A stretch of DNA of 58,899 nucleotides, filler included, from Sphacelaria rigidula (lineage: Eukaryota), in NCBI GenBank assembly GCA_964200075.2. It is 9 parts of 9 records of this genome, joined end to end, with 100 filler letters (N's around TTAATTAATTAA, not from the genome) between each part and the next. Parts side by side here need not be neighbours in the genome. Positions count along the whole stretch, not along the records: positions 19,669 to 26,124 come from CAXNAA020019968.1; 8 more parts are not named here. One strand, given 5' to 3'. The notes beneath the pieces are model-generated. The model did no database searches and was not told the origin of the DNA. It saw nothing but the letters and a program-made list of their open reading frames with translations. A program made the position numbers and the translations under genes. Below, piece by piece: positions 6,457 through 58,899 of this stretch (its first letter is position 1; the number at the start of each line of letters is the position of its first letter).

Positions 6457-6556
6457 NNNNNNNNNNNNNNNNNNNNNNNNNNNNNNNNNNNNNNNNNNNN
6501 TTAATTAATTAANNNNNNNNNNNNNNNNNNNNNNNNNNNNNNNNNNNNNNNNNNNN
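6457..6556. other. Artificial contig linker N44-TTAATTAATTAA-N44 (also 13013-13112, 19569-19668, 26125-26224, 32680-32779, 39235-39334, 45790-45889, 52345-52444)
   Basis: Eight identical 100-nt spacers with stop codons in all six frames. They separate contigs of 6456 bp (first four) and 6455 bp (last five). Confidence 0.98.
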
Positions 6557-11615: not shown

Positions 11616-13195
11616 TTAACCATGAACATTTCCAGCCCAACGCCCGTAAACTCCGCCATGAAGTCTACTACTGTATTACACAGCATGTGGGTCCTGTGGA
11701 TGCTCACTTTATCGCACAGGTTACAGAAGATATCGTACCCCATAAACATCGCACCACTGTTGTGATTTTTTCACGCCCGAATTGTCATCACACGGGCGGG
11801 TGTGACGTCTTATACAACCTACGGTGTCTTCCTTATCACGGCTTGAAACCGTCTATCTAAGGAACAGGGGGAGGGTTTCCAAGGGCTCAACTGGCCAGAG
11901 CTACCAGTTTGCAGCCCCAGGTAGATATGTGTGCAGTGCGTGAGGGCACGCATGGAACAAGCAGTAGTGCTGATCTTCGGGTATGTGTGATAGAGAGCGT
12001 TCTCCCGATATGTGGGCTCACAAGCACCTGCTGACAAATGTCTTTCATCAGATCAGAGCAGAGAGAGGGAGTATCGGGTAGCGCTCCTTTATGGATTCGC
12101 CGTCTTTGGCCTGCAGTATACCGTCGATTGTGCACCATAGGCCAAAAGAATCACAATAGGAACGAAGCATACAAAATTCAAACGAGAACGTTCACTCACG
12201 CGATTCAGGCTCACCTGTACAAAGTGGGGGCGCAGCTATAGTCCGCAGTAGGGAGAGAGATGATCGGCTATCCCGTTGGAGATGATGAGATCCCAGCGCC
12301 ACTTACAATGAAGTACGAAGCTAAAGAGCAAGCTGCCAGAGCACAATAGTACTCGAGACCGGAGTCAAGAGAGGGGCGAGGTGAACCGCTACCGTCCCCA
12401 ATGAAGACCACGAATCACGGCGTGCGACGCGTTGTACTGTTGGGGTGTAGATGGAGCCTGACGCAAACAATGGGTGAAATTTTCGAAAAAAAGTATATTC
12501 TGTCTTCTTGTTCTTTCGAGAGCTTGTGGCAACGTGGTGAGTTTAGTTTACCGCTTGGGAGGGTGAAGAAAGTTCTGAGGAAAATTATGGTTTGGTACAG
12601 ATGAGGATGGTCCTAAAATTATTACTACGTTATACAACGGCGGGTGAAATTAATCCCTGGATCCACACAACCCCCCCTCCCCCAGTAGCTCCTCATTTGA
12701 TTTTTTTGCTCAAACGAGACAACTGTTTATCAGGCTTTGAAGCGTCACTTGCTCAGCAAGACGTTGTCGAAACAATGCGTACGAGCCGTGCATGGTTTGT
12801 TCGTGTGTTTCACAAATAAACTTGGATGGTGTGCAGTGGTTTGAGCAGTGTTGAGTGTTGTTTTCGATTAATTTATCAAAAATAGTTCTTCGATGATTCA
12901 GGATGATTTAACCCTTAGACCGCGTTTGTGAGTTTTCCACTCTGGGTCTATTTTATTTCATTGTGGTTTCTTCTTCTAGCCTGTGACCACGGAAGGCGTC
13001 CGCATAAGATGCNNNNNNNNNNNNNNNNNNNNNNNNNNNNNNNNNNNNNNNNNNNNTTAATTAATTAANNNNNNNNNNNNNNNNNNNNNNNNNNNNNNNN
13101 NNNNNNNNNNNNAAAGGATGCCCCCCCCCCCCCCCCCCCCCCCAAACACACATCACGACAGGCTGGGCCGGCCAAGCGCGACCAGGAATATTGCC

Positions 13196-14319: not shown

Positions 14320-15985
14320 CGGTCCAGCATGTATAACGTACGGAACATGTCCAGAAAAAAAAATTCAGCCATGGCTGATGAGGGTGTATGGAAGACAGTA
14401 AGGAAAGGGCAGGGTGGAATAAGGTGGGGAAGCGTAGTCGAGAACGTATGGAGGGATATGAGAGGAAACCAAGAAGAGATAATGTCCATAGGTGAATGTG
14501 AGAAGATTGGAAAAACAAAAAAAAGGGGGTAAGACAAAAAGTGAACGAGGAAGAGCACCCGAAGATATACCGGGGGTTGAAACATGGGATAGGGATGAAA
14601 ACGTATTTGCACGCCCCGATGACTACCCGAAAAAATTCACGGTTCGAACGAATTAGAGTTCATACAGGTTGACTCCTCATGAATGTTGAGTGCGAATCAT
14701 GTACCAAAGAGTCATCCGGTACGAATCACAGATGGTGGAAGTTGTACGTTCAAGGCCATACCGCACGAATCATGGACTGATAATGTGTATACTTCGGGTT
14801 GTGTAACACGAGTCAGGATTGGGAATCACGTACGAATCACGGTCCATGTGCGAATCACTGGTGGGAAACACATACTCATGATTCATCCTGCATAAACTGA
14901 AGGGTGGGGAACATGTACCTATGATTCATCCGTGAAAAATGGAAGGTGGGAAACATGTCCCGTTCATTCACTTCTCGCGAATTGCAGGTGGGAGGGATGT
15001 ACGTGTGATTCACGCCCTATCAAATGATAGGTGAAGACCATGTACCGACGGCTCATACCGTACAAGTGCATGTGCCATCCCGCATGAAGCAAAGGGCGGG
15101 AAACATGTACAGTTTATTCATCTCGCACGAACTACGCGTGGGAGAGATGTACATGCCGCTCACGTTGTATGAAATGACATGTGATAAACACGTGACGACA
15201 ATTCATACTGTGCAAAATGCATGAGGAAAAACATGTACAAGTGATTCATCCCGCATAAAGCAAAGGGGATTGATGTGTGTGCCCATGATCACGCCGTGTG
15301 AGAGGAAGGTAGGACACATGTACCTTCGACTGTGTACCGCAGAATCACGAACTCGGAATGTGTACACTCCAATTAGTGTCGCACGAATCACGAACCTATA
15401 ACATGTACAAATCACAAATAATGGACGAATCGTATGATTGATTCGTCCAAATGTTGATTATGAGTTGGATCATGATTTTATTCGTCCGAATCGTGAAAAG
15501 GTTGGAAGTAAGGTCTCGGGTGGGGGACCTGGACCTGCCAGGGAGAAGAAAGAGATATAGCGATAGTAGGGTGGAGGAGGTACATGCAAGGAATTGCCCC
15601 TGCGGCAAAGCAAAACAACAGAGAGTAGAGTTCATGTAGCGGGAGAATGTGAAGTACAGTATACAAGGAAGAACGGGACGTGTTGGAGGGAGAAATGTTG
15701 GAAATAAACGAAGTGAGATCAAATCGTCAGGTATATTAGATTGTAGCGAGAAAACGGTCCCTGACCTATGAGATAAATTGTGGCGGCCACAGGCGGGGAA
15801 ACAGGAAGGGGATGAGATATGTCAACGGTTGTGTGTCATGTATGGAAAAACCGTGACGAGCGCCCAAATGTTGAAGGTGTCTCTATTAGAAGTAGGAACT
15901 GTCCTCCGCCTCAAGAAGGATGGACAGTCAATGGTCAAACGACTAAGGTGAGCAACAAATTTTTATCCCCCCTCCCTCCCCTCCT
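14320..15985 (+). mobile_element. Decayed LINE 3' portion (ORF2 C-terminus with CCHC knuckle) ending in a C-rich tail; interrupted by a TIR element
   Basis: Fragments read VWKTVRKGQGGIRWGSVVENVW, KIYRGLKHGIGMKTYLH, then [insertion], then RVGDLDLPGRRKRY..CPCGKA..(frameshift)ESRVHVAGEC..VWKNRDERPNV. The C-x-C...H-x4-C pattern resembles the LINE ORF2 zinc knuckle. Related copies lie at 28395-28615 and 29905-30062. Confidence 0.7.
14636..15497. mobile_element. Non-autonomous TIR DNA transposon filled with a degenerate ~42-bp tandem repeat, nested in the LINE
   Basis: Termini TTCACGGTTCGAACGAATTAGA vs reverse complement TTCACGATTCGGACGAATAAAA. Internal units resemble GGTGGGAAACATGTACCTATGATTCATCCCG. 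The LINE-like coding sequence resumes immediately after the element. Confidence 0.75.
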
Positions 15986-16133: not shown

Positions 16134-16872
16134 GCACGATCGGCGCAACCCGTGGCCGCTCCAGTACGGGGCGGAGCCCCCCGGATCTCACCCATCGGGG
16201 GGGACGTGCTCGGGCGCGTCAGCGCTCCCCGGTTGCCGGATGCGGCTCACTTTGCGTAAGTAACACTACTCACTTCTCACAGGAGTGCTTCCGGCGAAGA
16301 AACTGGCTCTCGTGGTGACCACCGCAACACAGCGTGGTCGCTGGCATCCATGGTGTCAAGTCCGATGGACCAACCGGGGTCCGCCTCACCTGTCCAGCGA
16401 AAGCTGTTCGTCTCTTTGACGTTTAGTTCGAGGTAGCTTCTTTCGTGGGGTCGGTGCTCCTTGCCCTGCCCACACTCTTTCTTCTGCGCGGTCCAGAGGT
16501 GCTGCCCGTCGGGTGACCGATCGGGGTCGGGTTCGCGGGGGTGGTGTGGGTGAGCGATGTACTGGTGCACTTGCCCGCATGATCCTCGGGGGCTGCCAAC
16601 GGTCTCTCCTTTGTTAGAGCTCCCATCTGTGAGATTCCTGAGCGTCGGTTGGGCTAGAATAGTCTTGGTTCGCACCATGCTGCGCTGGCTGGCGGCCCGT
16701 GTACGCATGCTCGCGGGGAAAATTGAGCTCGCGGGGTTCCCGCGTGGACGGAGCTAATATTGAGGGGGCCGGGGAATCAATATAACGATCGTTCCGCAGA
16801 GGATAGCTAATATTGAGGGGGCCGAGGAGGAACAACTCGTTTTCGTACCTGTTGTATGCCGTATAAAAAATC

Positions 16873-17441
16873 AGCCTGGTCCGGCAAAAACTCGGCGTGC
16901 TCCGTCCCGGCTTTGTAGGGACGGACCCCCGATGGGGTTGGCGTCGATTGACGATGATGCTGAGAAATACGCCACTTACTACGTAAGCTACGCAACCAGG
17001 TTACCGTTTTTTTTGCGCGCTTGCTTTTTTATTTTTGCGGTCACCATGATGATGATCGAGCTGGATCATGTTGTGCGGTGTGGGAAAACCTCAATTCCGC
17101 ACAAAGGAGATGATCGTACTACGTGGTGTCGAAACGGTGAGACACCCATGAGGCAGTGTATCAGCCATGGCTGTCTCTGGAAGTGGCGATACCAGAAAAT
17201 GAAGCAACTCATTGTAGGCTGTTATCCAAATACAAGATACTCAGTAGGCCTCGGTCCGAACCATCTCAGCAGGATGCAGCCCACCCTTTATGCGACTCGC
17301 CGAACACACCACGGTGCTTCACGCTTGGTGGTTGGATGCGAGCCTGGTCTAGCGAAAACCCGGCGTGCTCCTTCCCGGCTTTGTAGGGATGCGAGGTCAA
17401 TGATCTTATGACTATGGCTTGCATGATTACGAGCACACCCC
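16873..17441 (+). mobile_element. Family A non-autonomous retroelement (~570 bp), apparently full length, with a C-rich tail
   Basis: Collinear with 23283-23878. A ~49-bp segment at the 5' end is repeated at 17341-17389. The 3' ~70 nt are shared with the LINE tail. Confidence 0.75.
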
Positions 17442-18303
17442 TTCTAACCCCGTTTTTTTCAACACGCGGGGTGGCCGTACCGACCGTGTTTTGTCTTTTT
17501 CGTGAACGGAATCAATATCTCGAGCGTGCGAGTTCGTGATTCTCGGTAACCACGGAGGTCTGAAAATGTTCTCCACCCTCGGGGGTGCTATCCTCCGTCA
17601 TCATCTGTACCCGTGTATGTCGAACCTTGGGAGTATTTCCGTCGCCCATGGTGAGACCGTTCGATCATGTTTCTCCAAAGAAGTCATGGGGAAAGCAATA
17701 TTCAGACTATGCAGCAAATGCACGGATCGTTGCAAGTGTAAGCATCTGAGTTGAGTGAAGACAGTGTAGATGATGTATATGTTGGAGATGATGTATATGA
17801 TGAAGATGAATGTGACACCCATATGCAGACTTCATTTATGTGTATATGCCTGTATCGCAGGATGTGCTCTGTGCAAGCGAGGCGAGTCTACCAGCTCAGA
17901 CTTGAGAGCGCAAAAAAACAATATTTATGGATGAAATGCGTCAGCCCCGAGTGCAGTGAGTCTTGTCGGTTTTCGAGTGACTCCGTGTGTCAAACACGAC
18001 TTACTCTTGACGTGGTTTTAATATACAAGTACTTCTGCAGTGAACATGCCTTCTCCTTGTCAGCGTGTGAAAGTTCACCCCAATGGTCAAATGACTAAGG
18101 CAAGCAACAAATGAGTACGCCCCCCCTTCGCCCCTTCCTCCCCCCTATATCCACCAGACTGATAAGCTTGTTTTGTATGTGTATTTTCTCTCATAGCGTA
18201 GAAATAAATATTTCGCGATCCTCTCCAGTTCGCGCTGTACGGCAGGCAGTTGCCATGATATATTCCGAATGAGAGCAGGGTGTACGTGTTCGCGCGTCGA
18301 CAG

Positions 18304-19340: not shown

Positions 19341-19568
19341 CTTTGAGGATTGGCATCGGATGGCGATGACGCTGTAAAGCACACCACTCACTGCGTGAGC
19401 TAGGCGACCAGGTTGTCGTTTTTCTTGTCTCCATCTTGAAAGTGATGCGTGGTCGATGGTCAAACGACTAAGGCAAGCAACATATGAGAATGCCCCCCCC
19501 CCTGTGATGGTGAGGCACCCATGAGGCAGTGTATAAGCTGTGGCTGTCTCGGGAAGTGGCGATACCAG
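19341..19568 (+). repeat. Stack of family A fragments and a LINE tail separated by C-runs; truncated by the contig end
   Basis: Family A internal piece 19341-19428, LINE tail 19430-19503 ending in C10, and a family A piece 19505-19568. Confidence 0.7.
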
Positions 19569-19668
19569 NNNNNNNNNNNNNNNNNNNNNNNNNNNNNNNN
19601 NNNNNNNNNNNNTTAATTAATTAANNNNNNNNNNNNNNNNNNNNNNNNNNNNNNNNNNNNNNNNNNNN

Positions 19669-19917
19669 GTGCTCCGTCCCGGCTTTGGAGGGATGTGAGG
19701 TCAATGGTCTTATGACTATGGCATGCATGATCATGAGTACACTCTAGCCCCCGATACTCCGTCTCGAAAGGGATGCATAACTAAGGCGAGTAACAAATGA
19801 GAACCCCTCCCCCCCCCCCTCACCCCCGCTCCGTCGCTCCGTCTCGAAAGGGATGCGTGGTCAATGGTCAAATGACTAAGGCAAGCAACAAATGAGTACG
19901 CCCCCCCCTCACCCCCT
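19669..19917 (+). repeat. Three tandem poly(C)-tailed 3' ends (one family A, two LINE type)
   Basis: 19669-19752, 19757-19828 and 19836-19917, each ending TGAG(T/A)AC followed by a C-tract. Confidence 0.8.
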
Positions 19918-19935
19918 GCGCGCGCAACCGGACAG

Positions 19936-22900
19936 GCTCGAAAAAAGTGATGATATAGACATCGTGGTAGGGGAATGGAGAGCAGAGGGCGACGCTGCAG
20001 GGGGTGGTGGTGCAGCAACTCCTTCGCTGGAGCATGGTGATGATATGTCGGCGGTACGGGAGCTGGAGTACATGCACCCTGTCAAGTCGCGTTTCCCCGG
20101 TATGCCGTCGCACGCGAAGACGTTCAAGACACAGCGGATTCACTACGATGCCGATAGTGATCGGCTGAACTTGATTGAGGAGAGTCGATTCAAGGGGATT
20201 CCCTATGCGAACTACTTTTCAGGTATTTTTCGTTTTTTCTTCTTCCAAGTTACGGTATTGTCGAAAAAATGACGAAGAAAAGAGAGCACTGCCTTAGAGC
20301 TACTATTTTGTTTTTTTTGCATGAGTATGATTTTGTTCTACTATAATAATAATAATGATGATGTTTGAACAAATATGAGCGAAGACAATTTTTGTTGTGC
20401 TCTTATTCCGTGGTATACGTAAGTCTCAGTGTTTCACTTATGTGAAATACGGTGTAATAGTCATTATGCATTGTTCCGCCACCAGAAAATTATTTGTTGT
20501 TCGTCTGCAAGAGAAGGGTTGTTTTTTACGTCAAGTGTGTCATGGGAAGACTTCTGGGTCGCAGCAGAGCCTTGGACTACATGAAAGTGTGTACGTGTGT
20601 GTACGTGTGTTCAATCGTGTTTTTTACGGCTTGCCTCGGCATTGCTGGGTCTGTGTATAATCAACCGATCACGTTTTTGTTTCATGCCACTGTCTCTTAT
20701 CTATGTGTGTGTGTGTGTTTTTTTTTCTCTCTCTCGCGCGCACGCCGCTGCGCGTTCGTTGTTTCATGGCCATCCAAAATCATAAGTGCACACACATTGG
20801 GCTGTTCATCCGGTGCAAGACGCCACCGACGGTGACGATGATAGTGCACATGCTATGGACGGACACCGCGGTTCGCCCCGCGCGGGTCGAACGGCACTAT
20901 TTTCGGAGGTCTCGGTGGCGGTGGGAGTAAGCTGGAAGAAACGAACCGTCTTGCGCGGCAAGGTGCGTACTGTACCATTCTGGCAAAGCATCAACGCATC
21001 CCTCTTCGTCTCCGCTTCGTCTGTCTGTCGCCCTTGCTCCCGCATCTGCACTATGAAATCAGCACGTGTTATTGGGCATCATATGTCGCGTGGGCATGCC
21101 ACGATATGTCACGCTGAAGTGCAATGTTGGGCTGATTTTGTGCGCTCTATATACATGAAATATTAAGTCCTACGGGTTGCACATGACGGAACGCAGGGCG
21201 GATATGCGCAACGCTGTCGACACAAGAACGGCCGCCTGGGGCGAGAGAGACAAAACTTGCCGTACACGTGCTGTTTTTTTTCTTCCTTTTCCTCAAGAGA
21301 TGTGTGTCGGGAAAAGGGGGAAGGAGAAACATTGCAAGGGCAGGTCGAGTAGAGTATACTCAATACTCAGTATTTTTTAAGAGTCATACTTTTAGTACTC
21401 AAATTTTGAGTAGATTATTGGAAGCCGTACTCAACGTACTCGAAATTTGAGTAGAGTATTTGAGACCATACTCAACCTACTCAAAATTTGAGTAGAGTAT
21501 TGAGGTCATATTCAAGTGATACTCTATACTCAAGTATCACTGAGAGTGCTTACTCGAAGTTTGACTAGAGTATTTGAGGTCGTACTCGACCTACTCAAAA
21601 TTTGAGCAGAGTATTTGAGACCATACTCAACCTTTTCAAATTTTGAGTAGACTATTTGAGACCATACTCGACCTACTCAAAAACTGAGTAGAGTATTGAG
21701 GTCATACTCAAGTGATACTCTATACTCCAGTATCACTGAGAGTGCTTACTCAATATTTGAGTAGAGTATTTGAGACCGTACTCAACGTACTCAAAATTTG
21801 AGTAGAGTAGTGAGGTCGTACTCGACCTACTCAAAATTTGAGTGGAGTATCTGAGGTCGGATCCGATGTACCGAAAACCTATAACTTCGACTTCGATATT
21901 CAAGTTCGTACGCAAGATACTCAAACTCGGGTAGAGGAAGTACCGAGGTATTTCTAGAGGTGCCTACCCATGATGAGTGTTGATTCAAGGTCAAACTGTC
22001 TTGTCAAACCGTAGCCAGTAGAGTCGCTCATTTTGATAATACCTACTCGATTCCTCGAGTACTCGTTTACTCGATGATGATGAGTAGCGCTCTGTACTGA
22101 AAGTGATACCGAAGGCGTTAAGAGGTATCCAGTATGAAGTGCCGTAGGTGGGGGCTGGTGAGATGGGGCGCTGGGGCAAGTAGGTTCGTTCACCTGCGCG
22201 CTTCTTGATTTTTTTATGGCCATCATTCGCTCGTACTCCTTGTTGGCTGTGATGTAATGCCACCCATCTAATTGATGGCCATCGTTCGCCCATGTATTCA
22301 ACATAGTCTGTAAACTGACGTCACGAAGTCGCCGACTATCAGGGGTACTCACCATACCCAAGGAGTACTCTATACTCAAGTATTACTGAGAGTGCTTGCT
22401 CAATATTTGAGTAGAGTATTTGAGACCATACTCAACGTACTCGAAATTTGAGTAGAGTATTTGAGGCCATGCTCGACCTACTCAAAATTTGAGTGGAGTA
22501 TCGAGGTCATACTCAAGTGATACTCTATACTCGAGTATTACTGGGAGTACTTACTCGAAGTTTGACTAGAGTATTTGAGGTCGTACTCGACCTACTCAAA
22601 ATTTGAGCAGAGTATTTGAGACCATACTCGACCTACTCAAAATCTGAGTGGAGTATTGAGGTCATACTCAAGTGATACTCTATACTCAAGTATTACTGAG
22701 AGTGCTTACTCGATATTTGAACAAGTAGAGTATTGGAGGCCGTTATCAAAATTTGAGTAGAGTATTTGAGTTCGTACTCAACCTAGTCAAGTTTTGAGTA
22801 GAGTATTTGAGGCCATACTCGATCTACTTAAACGTCGAGTAGAGTAAACACTTGAGTATTTTACTCGAGTACTCTAAAGTACATACTCTACCCGACCTAC

Positions 22901-24908
22901 CCTTGAAACATTGCACCATGGCACGCGGTTTTGGATCGCCCGGACCTTTGTTGGTGTTGTTTTCGGTGGGCGAACCCAGGTATCGAAAATTACGCTTGCT
23001 CGGCACGCTGAGCATGCTTGGTATTGTTAGATGGATATGTTACATCTCTTGCTCGGGTGGGCGACTCACTACTTGCTCCATCAGCCCTTATCAACTACTT
23101 CACCGTGCCAGGCATGTCACAAGTGTGTATGTTACATGTTTGTGCCAGTGCCTTCCGGCTTCTTGGGGGGTATGTACGCCATCGCTGCGGCGCCCGTAAA
23201 TTAGGCGGGTGATTGTTGTCATGAACCTTGAATTATGTGATGGGATGTTGGAACCCCACCCCCCTCCTCACTTCCCTCCATTAGCCTGGTCCGGTGAAAA
23301 CCCGGCGTGCTTCGTCCCGGCTTTGCAGGGACTGACCCTCTACGAGGTTGGCGTCGCGTGGCCATGACGCTGTATAACGCACCACTCACTGCATAAGCTA
23401 GGCAACCAGGTCACTGTTGTTTGTGGCGCGCTTGCGTTTTTTTTTTGCGGTAACCATGATGACGGTCGAGCTAGACATCATGTTGTGCGGTGTGGGAGAA
23501 CCTCCATTCCGCGCGAAGGGGATGATCATGCTACATGCTTGTTTAAATGGTAAAACACCCGTGAGGCAGTGTGTAAGCCATGGCTGTCTCTGGAAGTGGC
23601 GATGCCAGAAAATAAAGCAACTCATCGGAGGCTGTCTGTCATCCAAATGCAAGACAATCAGTACATTTCGGACCGAATAATCTTAGCAGGATGCAGCCCA
23701 CCCTTCACGCGACTCGCCGAGCACATCACGGCGCTTCGCGCTTGGTGATGGGTTGCGAGTCTGGTCCGGCGAAAACCCAGCGTGCTTCTACCCGGCTTTG
23801 TAGGGATGCGACGTCAATGTTCTTATGACTATGGTATGCAAGATCATGAGTACACCCTTCCCCTTCCTCACCTCCCTTTCGTTTTTTCCGAGGTCTACGG
23901 TGTAGCGTTGAATAGCTGCGCGGCTGTTGAATACACGTGGCGGCAGCGTCGAAACACCGCGTACAACACTATCTACTACATAAACTTGAGTGACATGGGA
24001 GAAGTGTTTATTTTCGTCTCGACACTTATTTTTGGCTGACTGCATGTCCCCCCCCCTTCCCAACCTCTCCCTTCCCCTCGGCGCCCTCTACACGACCGCG
24101 GCAGATTGAGAAGCAGACGCTCGCCGAGCACGGAGAGAGCCTGCAGCACTGGGCCACGGAAGCTGCCGTTGCTTGTAGATCATTATTCAAGGATGACATA
24201 TCTAGCCATGCTGACGAACAGAAGGCCAACAAAAATAACAGTCTCAGTACTACAGCGCCCCCGTCAGAAGATTCAGCAGAAGATAACGACCCATACGTCG
24301 AGGGTGGAAGATATCCCGACAGGATTTCTAGCGATGATACCGATGGTTTGGGGTCCGCAGGGGGGGGCATTGCTAGCGACAATTCCGCCAGCGCAGGCGC
24401 GGTAGTCACACCTACAAGAAATGACCAGAAATTTGAGGGAGATACGGGATATGTCAACACCGCGGTCGCCTCCATCAACAGTAACAACGAAGGCCAGCAG
24501 AGCACGCAAGAGGGACCCCCTCAGCCTAGCCAGACAAACTCCCAGGCCCATGCAGTTTCAAGAGGCGACACGGTTTTTGATAGCTGCCACAATGACAGCG
24601 AGCATGAGGGCAAAGATCTCGTCGGGGGTTCTCCCAAATCCAGAGTGGGTGGTGCTGTAAATGATGGCGATGACGTCGGGGGCATGGTGAGTGGCGGTGG
24701 GGTAATGTCCGGTGCGCCCAGCAGCAGCACTCATGAACATCCTACTGCTCTCTGCGGCGTGGGCAACAGTTGTGCTCCTCCGGGTGTCTCGGTGACCTTT
24801 TCCACAACGAAGAAAATAGACTGGGCCCGCATGATTCTAGGAAGGCGTTTTCGGGAACCTTCCTGGTGGAGGCGCAACAAGCAGCATCGCGCCGGGTGTC
24901 GGCCGTGA
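19936..24908 (+). CDS. VASt (StART-like lipid transfer, LAM/Aster/VAD1-type) domain protein, 3' part; exons 19936-20222, 20787-20962, 24105-24908 (stop)
   Basis: The spliced translation EW..RELEYMHPV..KTQRI..EESRFKGIPYANYFS/VHTHW..VAVGVSWKKRTVLRGK/IEKQTLAE..W follows the VASt pattern (PY.DYF.V..RW; V.W.K....K..IE). Junctions are GT-AG and phases are consistent. Confidence 0.8.
21335..22905 (-). mobile_element. hAT-superfamily non-autonomous transposon, 1571 bp, in the VASt intron
   Basis: Perfect 8-bp TSD AAACATTG (21327-21334, 22906-22913) and TIRs CAAGGG(C/T)AGGTCG(A/G)GTAGAGTAT. It has long subterminal arrays. A central minus-strand peptide YSLGMVSTPDSRRLRDVSLQTMLNTWAND resembles the hAT C-terminal dimerisation region. 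Confidence 0.88.
21395..21850. repeat. Subterminal tandem array of ~41-bp palindrome-containing units (second array about 22365-22830)
   Basis: The unit TACTCAAAATTTGAGTAGAGTATTTGAGACCATACTCGACC alternates with a ~50-bp variant containing AGTGATACTCTATACTCAAGTATCACT. Confidence 0.9.
23283..23878 (+). mobile_element. Family A non-autonomous retroelement, second full-length copy
   Basis: Same 5' start (AGCCTGGTCCGG) as 16873, internal repeat at about 23758-23806, and C-rich sequence on both flanks. Confidence 0.75.
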
Positions 24909-26320
24909 CTTGGACGTACGTAAAGAGGGGGTTATTGTACGTATACGCGCTCCGCCCCCCCTTTCCCTCCCTACTCCACTTCTTTGAGAACATGCCTTTA
25001 CAGGATGATTTTTTTTTTTTCTGGACGAGTGAACAGTATTTAGTTATGGAGATCATGTTAAATATGTTTTTTGTTTTGGACGAGGGGAAGGCAAAATTAG
25101 GTATAATGGCGGGTGAAGAGTCCAGCCCCTAATCTTTTGTTGGGGTAGCTTCTCCCAGGCGCAGGTTATGTCTGAAGTCACGTTAGAAGTTTTGTGTGTT
25201 CTCCCCCGCCCCCTCCCCTCACTCCTTACAGAATAAGGGGTAGGTACAAGGGTGGTGAAATGAAGCAGGGTTCAAACCGTAGGTACGGGGAGGCGGGGGT
25301 GGGTGGGGGGGTAACGGTCCTCTTTGCTTTTGATCTGCAGCATCACGGTTATTGACTGCGTGTCACCTTGCGTTTGGCACACTGCTGCTGCTGCTGCTGC
25401 TGCTGCTGCTACTGCTGTGTTGTTCGAGCGGAAATAGGGGGCACCGCGGTTCATCTACTTTCTTAGTCGAACAAGTTTAAGTTTATCGAGTGTAAATGAT
25501 CTATGCGATTTATGTAAAGTTTGGGCATAAATGGGTCGTCCGGAGGTCGACAGCGCCGTGGAAGAGTTGCCTCTACAGCTATCCTTTCTTGTGGTGCCGT
25601 GCTGTGACCCTGCTTTTTAGCTGAGCAATGAAGGGTAAGTAGTGCTGACACCGAGGCAAAGCCGGGTTCAACGTTACGTCTTCTTTTTTTTTCTTCATTC
25701 ATTTCTCGTCTCGTTTGAGTGTTTCGTCGAGGTGAACTGCGGTGCTCCAGCATGGGCATCCGGCAGGTAGTGTGTTCATCGAGTGAACTTAATTGTTGAG
25801 CGTGTGGCTATACGTAGCTCGCACTCACTCGGGTGTGGTGTGGTATGGGGTTGTTGTGAGGTTTGCGCGTTGCTAGTTGATGTTGATCTGCTTGTCTGTT
25901 CGCACACCGCATGTTGTCCTCTTTCGTGTAGTCTTGGGTACAATACAAGGTGAGTGGTGAATGGTGCCTAGATAATATTTAGTAGTGGAAGGAGGGAAGG
26001 GGGACTCCTACCCCATATCCTGTAAATGGGGGGGGGGGGGGGGGTTTTTGGGATTGCAATGGATGGGTGCCTCCCTGTTGGGTTGGGAGGGGTTTTTGTC
26101 TTGTTTGGGTTATTATTTTGCCTCNNNNNNNNNNNNNNNNNNNNNNNNNNNNNNNNNNNNNNNNNNNNTTAATTAATTAANNNNNNNNNNNNNNNNNNNN
26201 NNNNNNNNNNNNNNNNNNNNNNNNGCCGCGGCCCGGCTTAGTGGGGGTGGGGGGCCAGTGGGGGCTTGACCGGGGCATTCCGAATCATCAACTCCCCCCC
26301 CCCCCCCCTTCCCACCCTCT

Positions 26321-26575
26321 GATAAAATGAAGCAACTTCTTTGAGGCTGTCACCCAAACGCAAAGCTGTAGTACGCTTCGGGGCCGATCCATCTTGGGGG
26401 GATGCAGCTCACCCTTGATGCTACTCTCCAAACACATCATGCTGCTTCGCGCTTGGTGATTGACTGCGAGCCTGGTCCGGTGAAAACTCGGCGTGCTCCG
26501 TCCCGGCTTTGTAGGGATGCAAGGTCAATGGTCCTATGACTATGGCATGTATGATCATGACTACACCCCCCCCAT
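26321..26575 (+). mobile_element. 5'-truncated family A copy between C-tracts
   Basis: Matches the 3' half of 16873-17441. It is preceded by a long C-run and followed by C8, about 60 nt before the MutS2 acceptor. Confidence 0.75.
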
Positions 26576-28036: not shown

Positions 28037-30638
28037 CGCGCGCGCGTACGTGTTCATGTGCGATTTTTATTTGATTGTCGCACTTTTACCGACCCCCCAG
28101 GGAACCAGCCGTGGTCACGTGGTTGACGTACCCGAGCCGAGATGAGGCAAAACTGAAACACTCGCTGAAGAAGAAAACAAAACAAAACAGAAGAAGTAGA
28201 ATAAAACAGAGTCGACTAGAAAAATGAAAAATAAGAAGACAGAAAGACAGGAATAAAAAAAAAAGCATGTGTGTGTGTGTGCAATATGTATATGTATATG
28301 TATATGTATTTTATTACTCGAACGGACGCCGTGGAGACGAGCTGTTGATGCCGCTCCTCTCCTGGGGGGGGTGAGGAAGTAGATGCACGAAATTGCTCTT
28401 GTGGGACAGCAACAGAGAGTGGGAGATGAGTGTGAACTAGTCAAAGGAGGAACGGGACGTGTGAGAGGAGAAGACATGCATGGAGGATCCAAACCAATGT
28501 GACATGAAAACGGTTGGTACGCTAGAGGGATAGCAACGAGAAAAAACATCACTGTACGATTAGATAGATGGTGGCCAGAAACAGACGGCTAAACAGGAAA
28601 GGGATCAGATATGTAAAAAAAGGTTATTGTGTACGAGCTGATCCAGCCAAGAGTTTCTATCGGCGATTCAACAGTTACGCCCAGCTTAATATCAGAAGTT
28701 AAAAGCTGAAACTTTGACCGGAGATTTTTGTTATCAATACGCGGAAAGTAGCTCAAGCAAAGAAAAAGAAAATAATAAGAACACAACGTCAAAAGTAAAA
28801 TGAAATCTATGTGTGTGTTGTTTTGTCGTCCCATCTATTCTGGACGCCGATCTACACCGTTCGCTATATGTGGACGCACCAGCCGGGGTCACGCAGGAGG
28901 AAGGTCGATACTGGAGCTTTTTATTTTTTTATTTCTCTTTAGTACCCCACCTTCCTTCTGCGGTGCTTGCCTTTCTTATTTTTCATCGCGAAAGGGGTTC
29001 AGCAGTCCCTTTCCCTCGTCGACCGTCAAGTCGACATTCTATCTGAACGAAAATAATGCCACAGCTCAATTTTAAGAATATATAAAATTCTATTTCTTCC
29101 ATTACGCATTTTCAATTTGATTGCAGGAAATTCTCGTATAAATTCGGATCAAAGCTCCAACAATTGAGCTGCACATGCGCATGTTTTGTGTCACACCGCG
29201 GCAGCCTGGTGGTCCAAGTGACACAGGAGACTCCAGCAATGGAGAAGTGTAAAATGAGATGAGACTCCAGGTACGGAGGGCACGAGTTCGAATTCTGAAA
29301 AACAGGCATCGGTCGCCCCGGTGGCTCAGTTGGTAACCTCGAAACCTTCTGACGGTTGGGTCGTGGGTTCAAATCTCGGTACGATCTGGGATTTTTTCTC
29401 ACGCAATGTCCGACAGTGGAGAGCGACTATAATATGTCGTGGGTGCACAAAATTCGACTTGACGGTCGACGAGGGAAAGGGACTGCTGAACTCCTCTCGC
29501 GATAAAAAAGAAAGAAAGGCAAGCACCGCAGAAGGAAGGTGAAGTACTAAAAACAAGCAGAAAAGAAAAAAAAAAACTCCTGTGTTGACCTTCCTCACGT
29601 GTGATTCCCCCGGCTGGTGCGCCCACGTATTAAACCGTATGGTGTAGATCGGCGTCCAGAATAGATGGGAGGACAACACAACACACAACACTCATTTTGC
29701 CTGCAGCATCTGGTGACGTCGTTGAGGTCATATATTTATGCGGTACATGTTTTTCCTTTTCTCCTTAACGGCGATAGAGCGTGTATCACCATCACCAGAT
29801 TAATCTGCAGTTTTTACAGCGATATGCTTCCATCGGGCTGATGCGGGAAGCCTAAAAAGGTGTTGTGTGCCCGGGGTACGCACGTCTTTTTCAGGCTGGC
29901 CCACAGCTCGTGATGCGTGGGGAAAACAACGTGACGAGCGTCCATGTGTTGGACGTGTCGGCTCTACTCGGAGTAGGAACAACGTATGCTCCGTCTCGAA
30001 AGGGATGAGTGGTCAGCAGTCAAATGACTACGGCAAGCAACAAATGAGTACGCCCCCCGCCGCCTCTCTGTGTATGTAGGTACGGCATGCAAGATCGTGA
30101 GTACACCCCCCCTCTCTCTGTCGTTGCTTTTGTGCTGCCCCTTTTCCCCCGTGCCCCCCTCCCCACTTTGTTGTTGTTATTGCTGCTGCTGCTGCTGCCT
30201 GCTGCCTTTTCTTCTAGGTTGCAGAGCGTTTGGAACTTCCAGCTTTCGTTGTGGAGCGGGCACGAAGCCTCCTAGACGAGAATACACGACAGGTGATGAA
30301 AAATAGGTTAGTCGAGTCATGGTCCTCCACTTTTCTTGTTTTGTTTTGTTTTATTTTTCGTCTTGCTTTGCCGATGCGTCAACAGCCATCATATGTTTTT
30401 TTTTCTTGTTTTTTTTTCTTGTTTTTTTTTCGCCTCTATGGGTCTTTTTTTGTTTTGATGCTGCTGCACCGTGGAGCTCCTCATGTAGTTTCGATTAATT
30501 TGTATCTTCAATACCCGGCGGTTCGTATGAGGATGACATACAATGAGTGAGGGGATATCTAAACGAGCAACTTCGTGCCGTGGTGATGGTTATCGTTGTT
30601 GCTTCTGTTGTAGGACTAGGAAGAGACGTAGGATTAAC

Positions 30639-32622: not shown

Positions 32623-33901
32623 TCCCCCACCCCCCACGCGCCCCCCCACCGCCGACAACGCCACACACACCAAAAAAAANNNNNNNNNNNNNNNNNNNNN
32701 NNNNNNNNNNNNNNNNNNNNNNNTTAATTAATTAANNNNNNNNNNNNNNNNNNNNNNNNNNNNNNNNNNNNNNNNNNNNCCGTCCCGGCTTTGTAGGGAT
32801 GCGAGGGTAATGGTCTGATGACGATGGCATGCATCATCATGGGTACCCTCCCGCCCCCCCCCCGCGTCTCCTTCACCTGCTGCTCTCTTTCTCCTTCCCT
32901 CCACTGGTTTTGGTCTCTTAACCTTACTCGTCTCGTCTTTTTTGTTTTTGTATCATGATTCGTTTGACTTGGATTCTGCTGTTGTCGTCGTCGTCGTCGT
33001 TGTTGATGTTCATGTTGGTATCGCCATTCTCCATTGTCGTCGTTTTGTCGTCGCACTGTCGTTACGGAGCTCCTGCCCAAGTACTCAAGCCCTCAAATAT
33101 ATAGCTAAGCCTTTACCTCCTTTGATGGCCTTGTCGGTTTCGTTGTGTTCTGCTTTGTTTAGATCTTGCATGACTTCCATCCTGGAAGCATGCAGAAGGG
33201 GTCTCCTGGCTGTTTTTTCACTTCTCAGTTTTCACTCTACTGTTGGGTCTGTTCTTTCCTTTACTCACATCTCACCATATTTCCGCCTTGTCGAGTTTCC
33301 TCGGCGAGTGTTCGGTTCACTTAAAAAGGGTACATGTCTACATATATTCTGCGACGACGGCCGGATTCCGAGCAAATAAGTTAGTAAACACCAATCGATC
33401 AATCAATTAGTCAATCACCCCATCATACACCCCGCTCCCCAACTAGTATTCTACTAATGCCGGGATACCTCTCCCCCCTACAAAAAGTGCGCCGGAGACC
33501 GTCTGACAAACCGGCTGCGATCCCACTATTGGGCTCGTTTGCAGCAATTTCGCCCACATGAGAGATGTGTAGCAGTCCGAAATTAGCAATAACGCCCAAA
33601 TAAGTAGCGTCGTGCAGCACGAAACCAGCTCTAACGGCATTTATGATCATTGCCTCCGCGCACTTTCCTGGCCGGTTCAGGGGAGGGGGTTATATCTCGG
33701 CAGCAGTCATTAGCAAGCGCAGGTATATTGGAACATGCGAACATCGAGTATACCGTTCCACAGGCGTGTTTCGAGAAGGACTATACGGAATGCCTCCTTC
33801 GCTGTGCGTCGGCCCTTCAACCCCGATCCAACCCCAGTGGATCCTCCAAAGGCATCTGACGTAACACCGTCCTATCCGTCCGGATTTCTTTTGCTGTACA
33901 G

Positions 33902-50954: not shown

Positions 50955-51429
50955 GTAGATTATGGGTTCCATTATATTGGTGCTACTGCTGTTGCTCTTG
51001 GTAGAGGGCAACAGCAGACCAAGCTTGTGATAAGCTCAGCTCCGACCGCTGAGGCGCGGGTCGCACGGTTTATGGCTGGGGTGCCACGTGCCGCGTGAAT
51101 GAACACGGGGCTTCCTGATGGGAGCGATGTACTCAGGCAGGATGCGTGACTCTCAGGACCATGCTGGTTTTCCGAAACTATGTTATGTGTGCAGTGTGTT
51201 CTCGTGTTCTTACGGCACCGCGCTATATACGCTGACACAAGGGCGTGCTGTGGGCGCTTTCGATGGCCGTGGTGGTCTTTGGGTGGCGACAGTCGTCTAC
51301 GCTTGTGTTTGGCCCGGCTCCGGGCTTTGACAATCGGATCGTGTGGTTCAGACTGGAGTCATAAGATCTGATCTTCGCACCAGGCGTTTTTGTTCAGATC
51401 CGTGGTGGAAATGTGCATAGCAAAGGGAC

Positions 51430-51655
51430 GAAATTCGACTCAACGGTCGATGAGGGAAAGGGACTGCTGGACCCCTCTCACGATAAAAAAATCAAGGCAA
51501 GCACCGCAGAAGGAAGGTGGGGTTCTAAATACAAACAAGGAAGAAAAAACTCCTGTGTTGACCTTCCTCCTATGTGAGCCCGGCTGATGCGCCCAGATAT
51601 ACCGAAGGGTGTAGACCTGCGTCCAGAGTAGATGGGACGACAACACACACAACCC
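51430..51655 (+). mobile_element. 5'-truncated SINE family B copy
   Basis: Collinear with 29450-29690, including the ACAACACACAC tail. Confidence 0.75.
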
Positions 51656-52444
51656 AAAGGAACGGGGAACAGGAGTCCTAACCCTTTCACCATTTCCGTA
51701 CAGTAGGGTGCAAAGTGTGACCATCATGACTATTTTGAGAATTGATAACTCTCGAATGAGGTACATTTGTCGTACAAGGAGCATCAGAGATGAAATTTTT
51801 ATTTTTTGATGAATGAATGCGAGGGGTTCCATATATATCAGTGCTGACATAACACCCAAGGTTTTCCTGTTAGCCCAAAACGGCGGGGGGAAGGGGGCAG
51901 AGGTACTCTGAACCCAAACAATTCGGCTGCCAGACATGGCCACGCTTCTCAACATGAAGTTGGTTCAAGTCTTGGAATTATGCTCGTGGAGTCGGAGAAA
52001 GGGTTTGCTCTATTTGCAAGACTTTGGTCCGACGTGATTACGAGTCAGAGAGGTCGGCCTGATGTGATGAAAAATAAACACCGGTGAGGCGGCTGCGTTC
52101 CGTGGGAGTTTCGTGGCGGCGGGCCCATGGGTACGGGCCAAATTATATAACACGTACACTAATTTCAAGTAATTTAATTCAAATTATCACCAGTCCCTCT
52201 ACATTATATAACGCATTATATAACGCAAACTTGATTTTAGTATTGACTCCGTCACACTCGTGATCACGGGCCTTCTGGTCCCCGCAGCCACTGCAGCCAC
52301 AGCAGCCACAGTACAGGATTGTACTGTGCTGCGGAAAGATGGTANNNNNNNNNNNNNNNNNNNNNNNNNNNNNNNNNNNNNNNNNNNNTTAATTAATTAA
52401 NNNNNNNNNNNNNNNNNNNNNNNNNNNNNNNNNNNNNNNNNNNN

Positions 52445-52518
52445 CCCAGCATTGTAGGGATGCGAGGTCAATGGTCTTATGACTATGGCATGCATGATCA
52501 TGAGTACACCCCCTCCCG
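52445..52518 (+). repeat. Family A 3' end at the contig start (similar copy at 32780-32863)
   Basis: GGGATGCGAGGTCAATGGTCTTATGACTATGGCATGCATGATCATGAGTACACCCCC. Confidence 0.8.
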
Positions 52519-58835: not shown

Positions 58836-58899
58836 CACGTGGTCAATGGTTAAACGACTAAGGCAAGCAACAAATGAGTACGCCCCCCTCCCCCCCCCC
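58836..58899 (+). repeat. LINE-type 3' end with poly(C), at the window end
   Basis: GTGGTCAATGGTTAAACGACTAAGGCAAGCAACAAATGAGTACGCCCCCCTCCCCCCCCCC. Confidence 0.8.

Follow-up and report, generated by a model that had tools for sequence, protein, structure and literature searches.

What short signal do a LINE and a second repeat family of Sphacelaria rigidula have in common at their 3′ ends, and what would such a signal do? The question arises at positions 19669-19917 of the stretch of DNA analyzed here (the window; 58,899 bases), where an earlier note had recognized two hairpins shared by the LINE and by a repeat termed family A, and had read them as the reverse transcriptase (RT) recognition element of an undescribed LINE/SINE pair. 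The window is not one locus. It comprises nine unrelated stretches of 6455-6456 bp each, which are unplaced contigs ordered by size, joined by N44-TTAATTAATTAA-N44 linkers (6457-6556, 13013-13112, 19569-19668, 26125-26224, 32680-32779, 39235-39334, 45790-45889, and 52345-52444), across which neighborhood is biologically meaningless. Because a contig starts at position 19669, the family A copy found there has been truncated by a break in the assembly, and what stands before 19569 does not adjoin it in the genome. The contigs starting at 19669, 32780, and 52445 each begin within a family A tail, which indicates that the repeat itself breaks assembly.

Positions 19669-19917 are occupied by three retrotransposon 3′ tails arranged head to tail: a family A tail, a LINE tail minus hairpin 2, and another LINE tail. 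The first (19669..19742, plus strand; covariance-model (CM) match 19671-19741, E 4e-10) is the 3′ tail of a non-autonomous, RTEX-N1-like element whose 5′ side is lost at the contig start. It carries hairpin 1 at 19675-19695, hairpin 2 at 19705-19718 and a terminal ATGAGTACA at 19733-19741, and is 88-94% identical to the tails at 17365, 23782, 26493, and 52445; in tens of thousands of aligned contig pieces, poly-C follows 19742. The second, LINE-type tail (19756..19805, plus strand; CM match, E 4e-10, and alignment) bears an internal deletion that removes hairpin 2, and a C-rich tract then extends to ~19830. The third is a 5′-truncated LINE 3′ tail (19836..19908, plus strand; CM match, 97.5 bits), with hairpin 1 at 19840-19855 and hairpin 2 at 19865-19878, the latter enclosed by a lower stem formed between 19860-19862 and 19880-19882. 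It closes with the former ORF stop TGA (19893-19895), GTACG (19896-19900) and a run of eight C (C8; 19901-19908), and 65 nt of it are identical to contig L003 and to the end of a 1382-aa LINE frame in contig L050.

Comparable joints are seen in sequencing runs X1-X4, where one LINE tail directly follows another in many contigs (“goes back 69-74” joints; at most 60 contigs per run for a single joint) and a family A tail is joined to a LINE tail in some. The second tails often begin within a few bases of 19836, where the homology with family A starts; because the truncation point of the reference itself forces this coordinate, it does not demonstrate a preferred truncation site. Directly downstream of the pile-up, at 19994-20223 (plus strand), lies an exon with a VASt domain (Pfam E 1.7e-8; frame match 19880-20269) and a GT splice-like end. 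Its translation is 100% identical over 78% to a Sphacelaria rigidula protein, and its position puts the tails either a short way upstream of a host gene or within the 5′ region of that gene.

The strings by which the shared signal was first recognized are all present: CGTCTC-GAAA-GGGATG at 19840-19855 and TGGTC-AAAT-GACTA at 19865-19878 in the LINE tail, and CGTCCC-GGCTTTGGA-GGGATG at 19675-19695 and TGGTC-TTAT-GACTA at 19705-19718 in the family A tail. A composite motif, GGGATG..GGTCNATGGTC-NNNN-GACTA, searched with at most three mismatches, was matched 10 times in the window, each time on the plus strand, and never in 100 dinucleotide-preserving shuffles; hairpin 2 alone was matched 14 times, against a shuffle mean of 2.94 and a maximum of 8. 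The hairpin 2 loops AAAC, AAAT, TTAT, CTAT, and AGAT had been listed and all occur in the window, with TGAT as an additional one. As a description, “stems kept, loops swapped” is apt: the consensus sequences of the LINE and of family A disagree in one of 22 stem columns, while loop 1 is replaced and loop 2 is changed.

Within the window, the LINE type is represented by tails only, ~45-210 nt long, which combine a constant 3′ end (...ATGAGTACG followed by a C run) with variable 5′ truncation, the copies beginning at ~15830, 18081, 19428, 19836, 29915, and 58838. Both families were aligned with the covariance model, MAFFT having misaligned the 5′ strand of hairpin 1 between them. Besides the copies in the pile-up, the plus strand holds an older tail at 15903..15967 (alignment, CM match), whose homology to the copy at 30002 reaches ~80 nt farther upstream; a tail at 18081..18134 that is truncated within the linker and retains hairpin 2 only; a tail at 29988..30060 with ~80 nt of additional LINE 3′ end upstream of it (from ~29915), after which a family A tail fragment lies at ~30080-30108; and a tail at 58838..58899, truncated just before the lower stem, that reaches the end of the window (the last three each by self-comparison, alignment, and CM match). 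A 91-aa frame (29804-30076) running over the copy at 30002 was considered as coding and set aside, as it looked non-coding. One further tail, at 19428..19500 (plus strand; self-comparison, CM match), sits inside a family A body: family A fragments flank it at 19345-19413 and 19507-19568, and the junction lacks ~135 bp of family A. The segment 19345-19568 is either an insertion with target deletion or a template-switching chimera.

Where, then, is the autonomous element from which these tails derive? No RT is encoded in the window among the 150 frames profiled against Pfam (149 of the 166 stop-to-stop frames of at least 90 aa, plus 39335-40192; five frames across an N run at 37.3-38.0 kb and 12 beyond 56.3 kb were left out), which returned only the VASt domain and a weak DUF7451 match. 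Sequence collections scanned with one pattern of 18 specified bases gave 33 loci in all, nine of them with the extended tail. Metagenome contigs accounted for 20 loci, five true (L003, L004, L008, L010, and the partial L007) and 15 due to chance; prokaryote-genome contigs for 10, of which four are true (L026, L027, L028, and L030) and represent algal contigs inside bacterial MAGs; and viral contigs for three, none of them true. A 678-aa open RT frame (RVT_1, E 2.8e-33) ends in this tail in both L003 and L008; in L050, a contig of 5259 bp, the tail closes the 1382-aa open frame and is followed by a C13 tail. All three frames end ...GCVVNGQMTKASNK, then TGA, GTACG, and a C run. Full-length relatives (1,328-1,360 aa; 90% and 76% identity) carry PF03372 and PF00078, and a protein from Ectocarpus, which has the same C-terminal peptide, shares 71% identity with the LINE frame.

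Data from S. rigidula itself agree. Upstream of the copy at 19836, the contigs that match it run on into ...GGAGGTGTCTCT..AGGAGTAGGAACGGT, with which the LINE ORF ends; a Sphacelaria rigidula gene model ends in the LINE peptide; and poly-C stands behind both the LINE and the family A tails in all four sequencing runs. The “LINE type” is therefore, as had been proposed, the 3′ end of an autonomous LINE, the same tail closing an endonuclease (EN) and RT frame outside the window. With an EN and RT ORF and a constant 3′ end combined with variable 5′ truncation, the element has the sequence features of an APE-type non-LTR retrotransposon and is classified as one. It also shows features of the RTE-X type, namely a single long frame, a (C)n 3′ terminus, and C-rich flanks (as around the family A copy at 23280-23860), the L050 contig spanning only 5259 bp; considering these descriptive matches and the 71%-identical Ectocarpus protein, it most likely belongs to the RTE-X group. 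Upstream of the LINE frame in L050, at about nt 480-560 in the orientation of the element, there is an inverted, decayed sequence resembling the reverse complement of a related tail, which may be an older insertion in the opposite orientation.

Family A, the non-autonomous partner, is ~580 bp long. Its full-length copies lie at 16870..17444 (plus strand; ~575 bp, 83% identical over 583 nt to 23280-23860) and at 23280..23860 (plus strand; self-comparison, alignment), the latter with C-rich sequence on both flanks. Apart from the tail at 19669, the remaining copies are a 5′-truncated one at 26324..26569 (plus strand; self-comparison, alignment, CM match), tails at the contig starts 32780..32847 and 52445..52517 (both plus strand), and a 5′-truncated tail on the minus strand at 38790..38845 with a C tract before it (these three by self-comparison and CM match). 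The element has a terminal direct repeat of ~49 nt, 16873-16921 matching 17341-17389 with 90% identity in the first full-length copy and 23283-23331 corresponding to 23758-23806 in the second. As this repeat contains hairpin 1, the hairpin is present at both ends of family A, and in the 5′ repeat at 16873-16921 its stem is a perfect 7 bp (CCGUCCC/GGGACGG).

With the LINE, family A shares only its last ~60-65 nt and the C tail (82% over 62 nt), and it keeps the nucleotides of this module without any reading frame. A LINE-shared 3′ end, one mark of a strictly defined SINE, is present; a tRNA, 5S, or 7SL head with a pol III promoter was not found. ARAGORN reported no tRNA in the window, and Rfam gave no match at the gathering score over the whole window, none at E<=1 on 19669-19930, and on 16800-17500 a sole match at E<=1 to SNORD60 (E 0.78), attributable to chance. 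Of the proposed LINE/SINE pair, the common 3′ end accordingly holds, but the SINE label is not justified for a family with no recognizable small-RNA head.

The whole signal sits within LINE coding sequence, a circumstance that the earlier note omits. Both hairpins fall in the last 21 codons of the ORF, whose frame ends ...V S I R S R N G A P S R K G C V V N G Q M T K A S N K stop, with hairpin 1 spanning P S R K G C and hairpin 2 spanning N G Q M T K; the TGA stop lies within AACAAATGAGTACG (window 19893-19895), and the 3′ UTR consists of five bases (GTACG) and the C run. Codons were compared between L003 and L008 and between L050 and L008, lineages with 80% identity at both the nucleotide and the protein level, with L004 left out on account of a frameshift. 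Third positions are identical in 30 of the last 30 codons, versus a fraction of 0.63 in the rest of the ORF and at most 25 of 30 in the best other 30-codon window. Nucleotides are identical at 87 of 90 positions versus 0.80, and where the amino acid is the same, so is the codon in 27 of 27 cases versus 331 of 518 elsewhere. The three differences that do exist in the tail all change an amino acid: one falls in the loop of an upstream hairpin (hairpin 0), one in loop 2, and one turns a U.G pair of hairpin 1 into U-A. Third positions being identical throughout and every change altering the protein, selection acts on the nucleotides and not on the peptide.

That the conserved feature is instead a functional C-terminal peptide of the LINE protein, the DNA of which family A merely copied, would agree with the recurrence of ...NGAPSRKGCVVNGQMTKASNK in relatives. 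However, a tail in which silent sites are frozen and all L003-L008 differences are amino-acid-changing is the reverse of what protein-level selection leaves behind, and family A has retained the nucleotides with no frame to preserve. We regard this explanation as improbable in the extreme. Recent common ancestry through 3′-end exchange, by template switching or recombination and without selection, seems very unlikely. Template jumps do appear to be frequent, judging from the tandem and nested tails (19669-19917 and the “goes back 69-74” joints) and from the terminal direct repeat of family A. Yet L003, L008, and L050 derive from separate public records, three in all, with frames that stay 20% diverged as far as about codon -33. 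The C-terminal peptide is almost unchanged in relatives at 71-76% protein identity, and relatives at 28-43% identity still show xNG within their last 20 residues (13 of 94, versus 130 of 6633 control windows; the motif was chosen post hoc and is a lead only). Due to the synonymous freeze, the sharing with a non-coding partner, and the retention in every truncated copy, the best reading is a cis-acting 3′ element, and we consider it likely that the ~65-nt module together with the C run serves template choice by the LINE RT. The proposal of a shared RT-recognition element is thus supported in part, by the strong nucleotide-level constraint in the LINE and the tail shared with family A; the hairpin fold on which it had been built is plausible but weakly backed.

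For the fold itself, several observations are favorable. RNAalifold, applied separately to nine LINE tails and nine family A tails, predicted both hairpins and the 3-bp lower stem each time. Among 15 distinct full-length tails, pair 5 of hairpin 1 occurs in three states, U.G (5), U-A (2), and C-G (7), and the same hairpin 1 stems carry the loops GAAA, UACU, GGCUUUGUA, GGCAUUGUA, and AGGUUUGUA. Common variants cluster in loop 2: in 39,228-97,528 contig pieces per run over four runs, some differences being uncounted, variants at a frequency of at least 5% affect three of the four loop 2 positions versus 3 of 57 others in the LINE tail (p=0.002) and 3 of 52 others in the family A tail (p=0.003). 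Part of this loop 2 variation (AAAC/AAAT next to G) may be CpG decay. Both stem positions that vary retain pairing (G.U to G-C and U-A to U.G). G.U pairs make up four of the 11 in the hairpins, which confines the fold to the sense strand; the reverse strands give poorer energies (-8.9 vs -14.3 and -13.0 vs -25.6 kcal/mol).

Other observations fit recognition of the module as a linear sequence with its C tail just as well, the small hairpins then being incidental complementarity of the kind usual in any 65 nt. The folding energy is ordinary (z=-0.94 for the LINE tail, with 30 of 200 shuffles as good; -2.0 to +0.5 across tails), and the minimum-energy fold of some family A copies swaps hairpin 2 for another pairing. 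Compensatory changes are found at none of 16 pairs in the LINE set and one of 17 in the family A set. Hairpin 2 stems, being invariant between lineages, show no covariation and are uninformative for or against pairing. Among S. rigidula LINE copies, 2 of 22 stem positions vary versus 4 of 39 others (p=1), and loop 1, the linker GCGUGGUCAA, and the terminal AUGAGUAC show no less constancy than the stems; a pattern of this kind is compatible with primary-sequence recognition as much as with a fold. The difference between the two consensus sequences, one of 22 stem columns versus 8 of 39 other aligned columns, falls short of significance (p=0.14). Against the linear alternative, LINE and family A have different sequences in both loops on stems that are retained, pair 5 of hairpin 1 takes three standard states, and all five recurrent stem changes keep pairing, although the last point is only suggestive given that ~64% of transitions would do so by chance. 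We judge linear recognition possible but unlikely. That the two-hairpin fold is the recognized feature is close to an even call, on which we stop just short of a yes.

An initial count of seven pairs with two-sided change on the model-fitted alignment (0 of 500 shuffles as high) was rejected as inflated, because truncated or decayed rows had unrelated or shifted sequence fitted to the stems. When the seven truncated rows (58820, 18058, 19756, 52443, 23789, 38790, and L007) were left out, one covarying hairpin pair remained; the decayed copy L010:410-475 had likewise been misfitted. The stem variants that had been cited as keeping pairing are real, but each is one-sided and consistent with wobble pairing: AGTC/GACT at 30016 changes G.U to A-U, with the adjoining outer pair broken; TGGTT/GACTA at 58847 changes C-G to U.G; and CGTCTC versus CGTCCC in hairpin 1 changes U.G to C-G. 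Decayed copies with broken pairs, also noted earlier, occur at 17401, 23818, 32811, and 15917. As for the expectation that stems should mutate less freely than loops among young copies, the common variants do cluster in loop 2, but stems are no more constant than other non-loop positions. Inserted copies decay neutrally whatever the master element needs, which makes this comparison a weak one and leaves differences between source lineages as the informative kind.

Taking the cis-acting element as the likely reading, a mechanism can be proposed. As sense-strand RNA, the module would form the 3′ end that the LINE RT binds in order to select its template, in a stringent type of recognition. The RNA would probably fold, in the model, into hairpin 1, of 6 bp with a loop of GAAA (LINE) or 9 nt (family A), and hairpin 2, of 5 bp on the 3-bp lower stem with a freely variable loop. 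Family A would have borrowed the LINE module, and the LINE protein would bind family A RNA too. The C tail may then anneal to a nicked G/C-rich target and prime reverse transcription, which would explain both C-rich target duplications and new tails landing in older C tails; a preference for older C tails could in turn give rise to the pile-up at 19669-19917 and to the tandem joints in contigs. Additionally, the R-like terminal repeat of family A could promote template jumps and tandem arrays like those of an Ectocarpus element.

That Ectocarpus element belongs to a system to which the pair described here bears a close resemblance. In the portions of its description considered here (PMC12477816), RTEX-1 and RTEX-2 each encode EN and RT in one ORF, terminate 3′ in (C)n, and have a C-rich target-site duplication, elements of the RTE-X group measure ~5.5-5.9 kb, and RTE-X is treated as a group apart from RTE. 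RTEX-N1, whose head the authors did not identify, measures 607 bp, has a “60 bp 3′ end 83%” to the LINEs, “can be present in tandem,” and exceeds 6,000 copies; RTEX-N2 measures 188 bp (PMC12477816). The likeness to RTEX-1/RTEX-2_Ec32, RTEX-N1_Ec32, and RTEX-N2_Ec32 extends over the EN-RT ORF, the (C)n end, the C-rich duplications, the tandem arrangement, and the very high copy number, and RTEX-N1_Ec32 and family A are alike in their size of ~600 bp, in a head of unknown origin, and in a last ~60 bp at ~83% to a LINE (82% over 62 nt here). The host differs, Ectocarpus there and Sphacelaria rigidula here, and the two were compared by description only. As the features match point for point, the S. 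rigidula pair is not undescribed as a kind, contrary to what the earlier note had supposed, RTEX-1/RTEX-2 LINEs with an RTEX-N1 partner being already listed for Ectocarpus (PMC12477816); it is most likely the same system in another brown-algal order. A limited search found no literature naming both Sphacelaria rigidula and RTE-X. The terms “hairpin” and “stem-loop” are absent from the main text and four text supplements of PMC12477816, and “secondary structure” from its main text, nor do these texts describe the shared tail as coding. Both the overlap with coding sequence and the structural model thus appear to be additions to the Ectocarpus description.

Two further groups of elements offer instructive comparisons. 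In zebrafish ZfL2 and other reviewed LINE/SINE pairs, the 3′ stem-loop lies in the 3′ UTR, and experiments have demonstrated both binding and retrotransposition, according to the sections of these sources drawn upon here (PMC4176376, PMC3747384). Such stringent-type pairs resemble the present one in that the partner shares the LINE 3′ end and in that the site of RT binding is proposed to be a small stem-loop at the 3′ end, ahead of a simple repeat; in S. rigidula, by contrast, the candidate signal falls within the ORF and the tail is poly-C. RTE-clade LINEs, as characterized in the parts of PMC2887409 considered, have a single ORF for an AP-endonuclease and RT, an extremely short 3′ UTR with a simple-repeat end, and frequent 3′-only copies. 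The S. rigidula LINE has the same ORF plan, a very short 3′ UTR, and 3′-only truncated copies, but its repeat is a mononucleotide C run and its 3′ UTR is only 5 nt long.

A more general proposal goes beyond the S. rigidula pair. It would hold that RTE-X elements carry their recognition signal within the last ~30 ORF codons, as a bipartite stem-loop plus C tail conserved across stramenopiles down to ~30-40% protein identity and visible as a “...VNG...” footprint; that ~73 nt plus (C)n would suffice for mobilization; and that template jumping, or serial insertion into C tails of older copies, would build the tail-only tandem arrays found in the contigs. We offer it as a speculative extension, and in its full breadth a doubtful one.

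Several other features of the window and of brown-algal sequence collections deserve mention. A satellite-like block of tandem or interspersed repeats occupies 21395-22846, with self-matches of 73-93% identity at offsets of ~41 and ~155-200 bp. A third, unclassified repeat family of ~225 bp is present at 28812-29038, 29451-29687 (inverted), and 51428-51651, with 82-85% identity and ~400 bp between the members of the inverted pair. On the minus strand, 39335-42029 holds a run of long open frames (286, 182, 211, and 197 aa) that reaches the contig edge and has no Pfam match; their last residues resemble what we take to be the start of an LTR-retrotransposon RT. Among brown-algal gene models, P0006, P0102, and P0104 terminate in the LINE C-terminal peptide or continue through it; one of them joins it to a lipase domain and another to gypsy-type domains, and they look like chimeric annotations caused by LINE tails.

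For genome annotation, the consequence is that such tails create spurious C-terminal exons (P0102 and P0006, both ending in the LINE peptide) and, as the family A tails at contig starts show, break assemblies. For the repeat family, a very abundant brown-algal pair, represented by tens of thousands of contig pieces per run, is now placed in the framework of an RTE-X LINE and its passenger. What is new relative to the Ectocarpus description, as far as the portions of it considered here extend, is that the shared tail is coding, with a 3′ UTR of 5 nt, and that frozen synonymous sites mark a cis-acting element. Template choice by a LINE RT has been settled experimentally mainly for L2-, R2-, and L1-type elements; ~65 nt and a C run would constitute a compact candidate signal for how an RTE-type RT selects its template.
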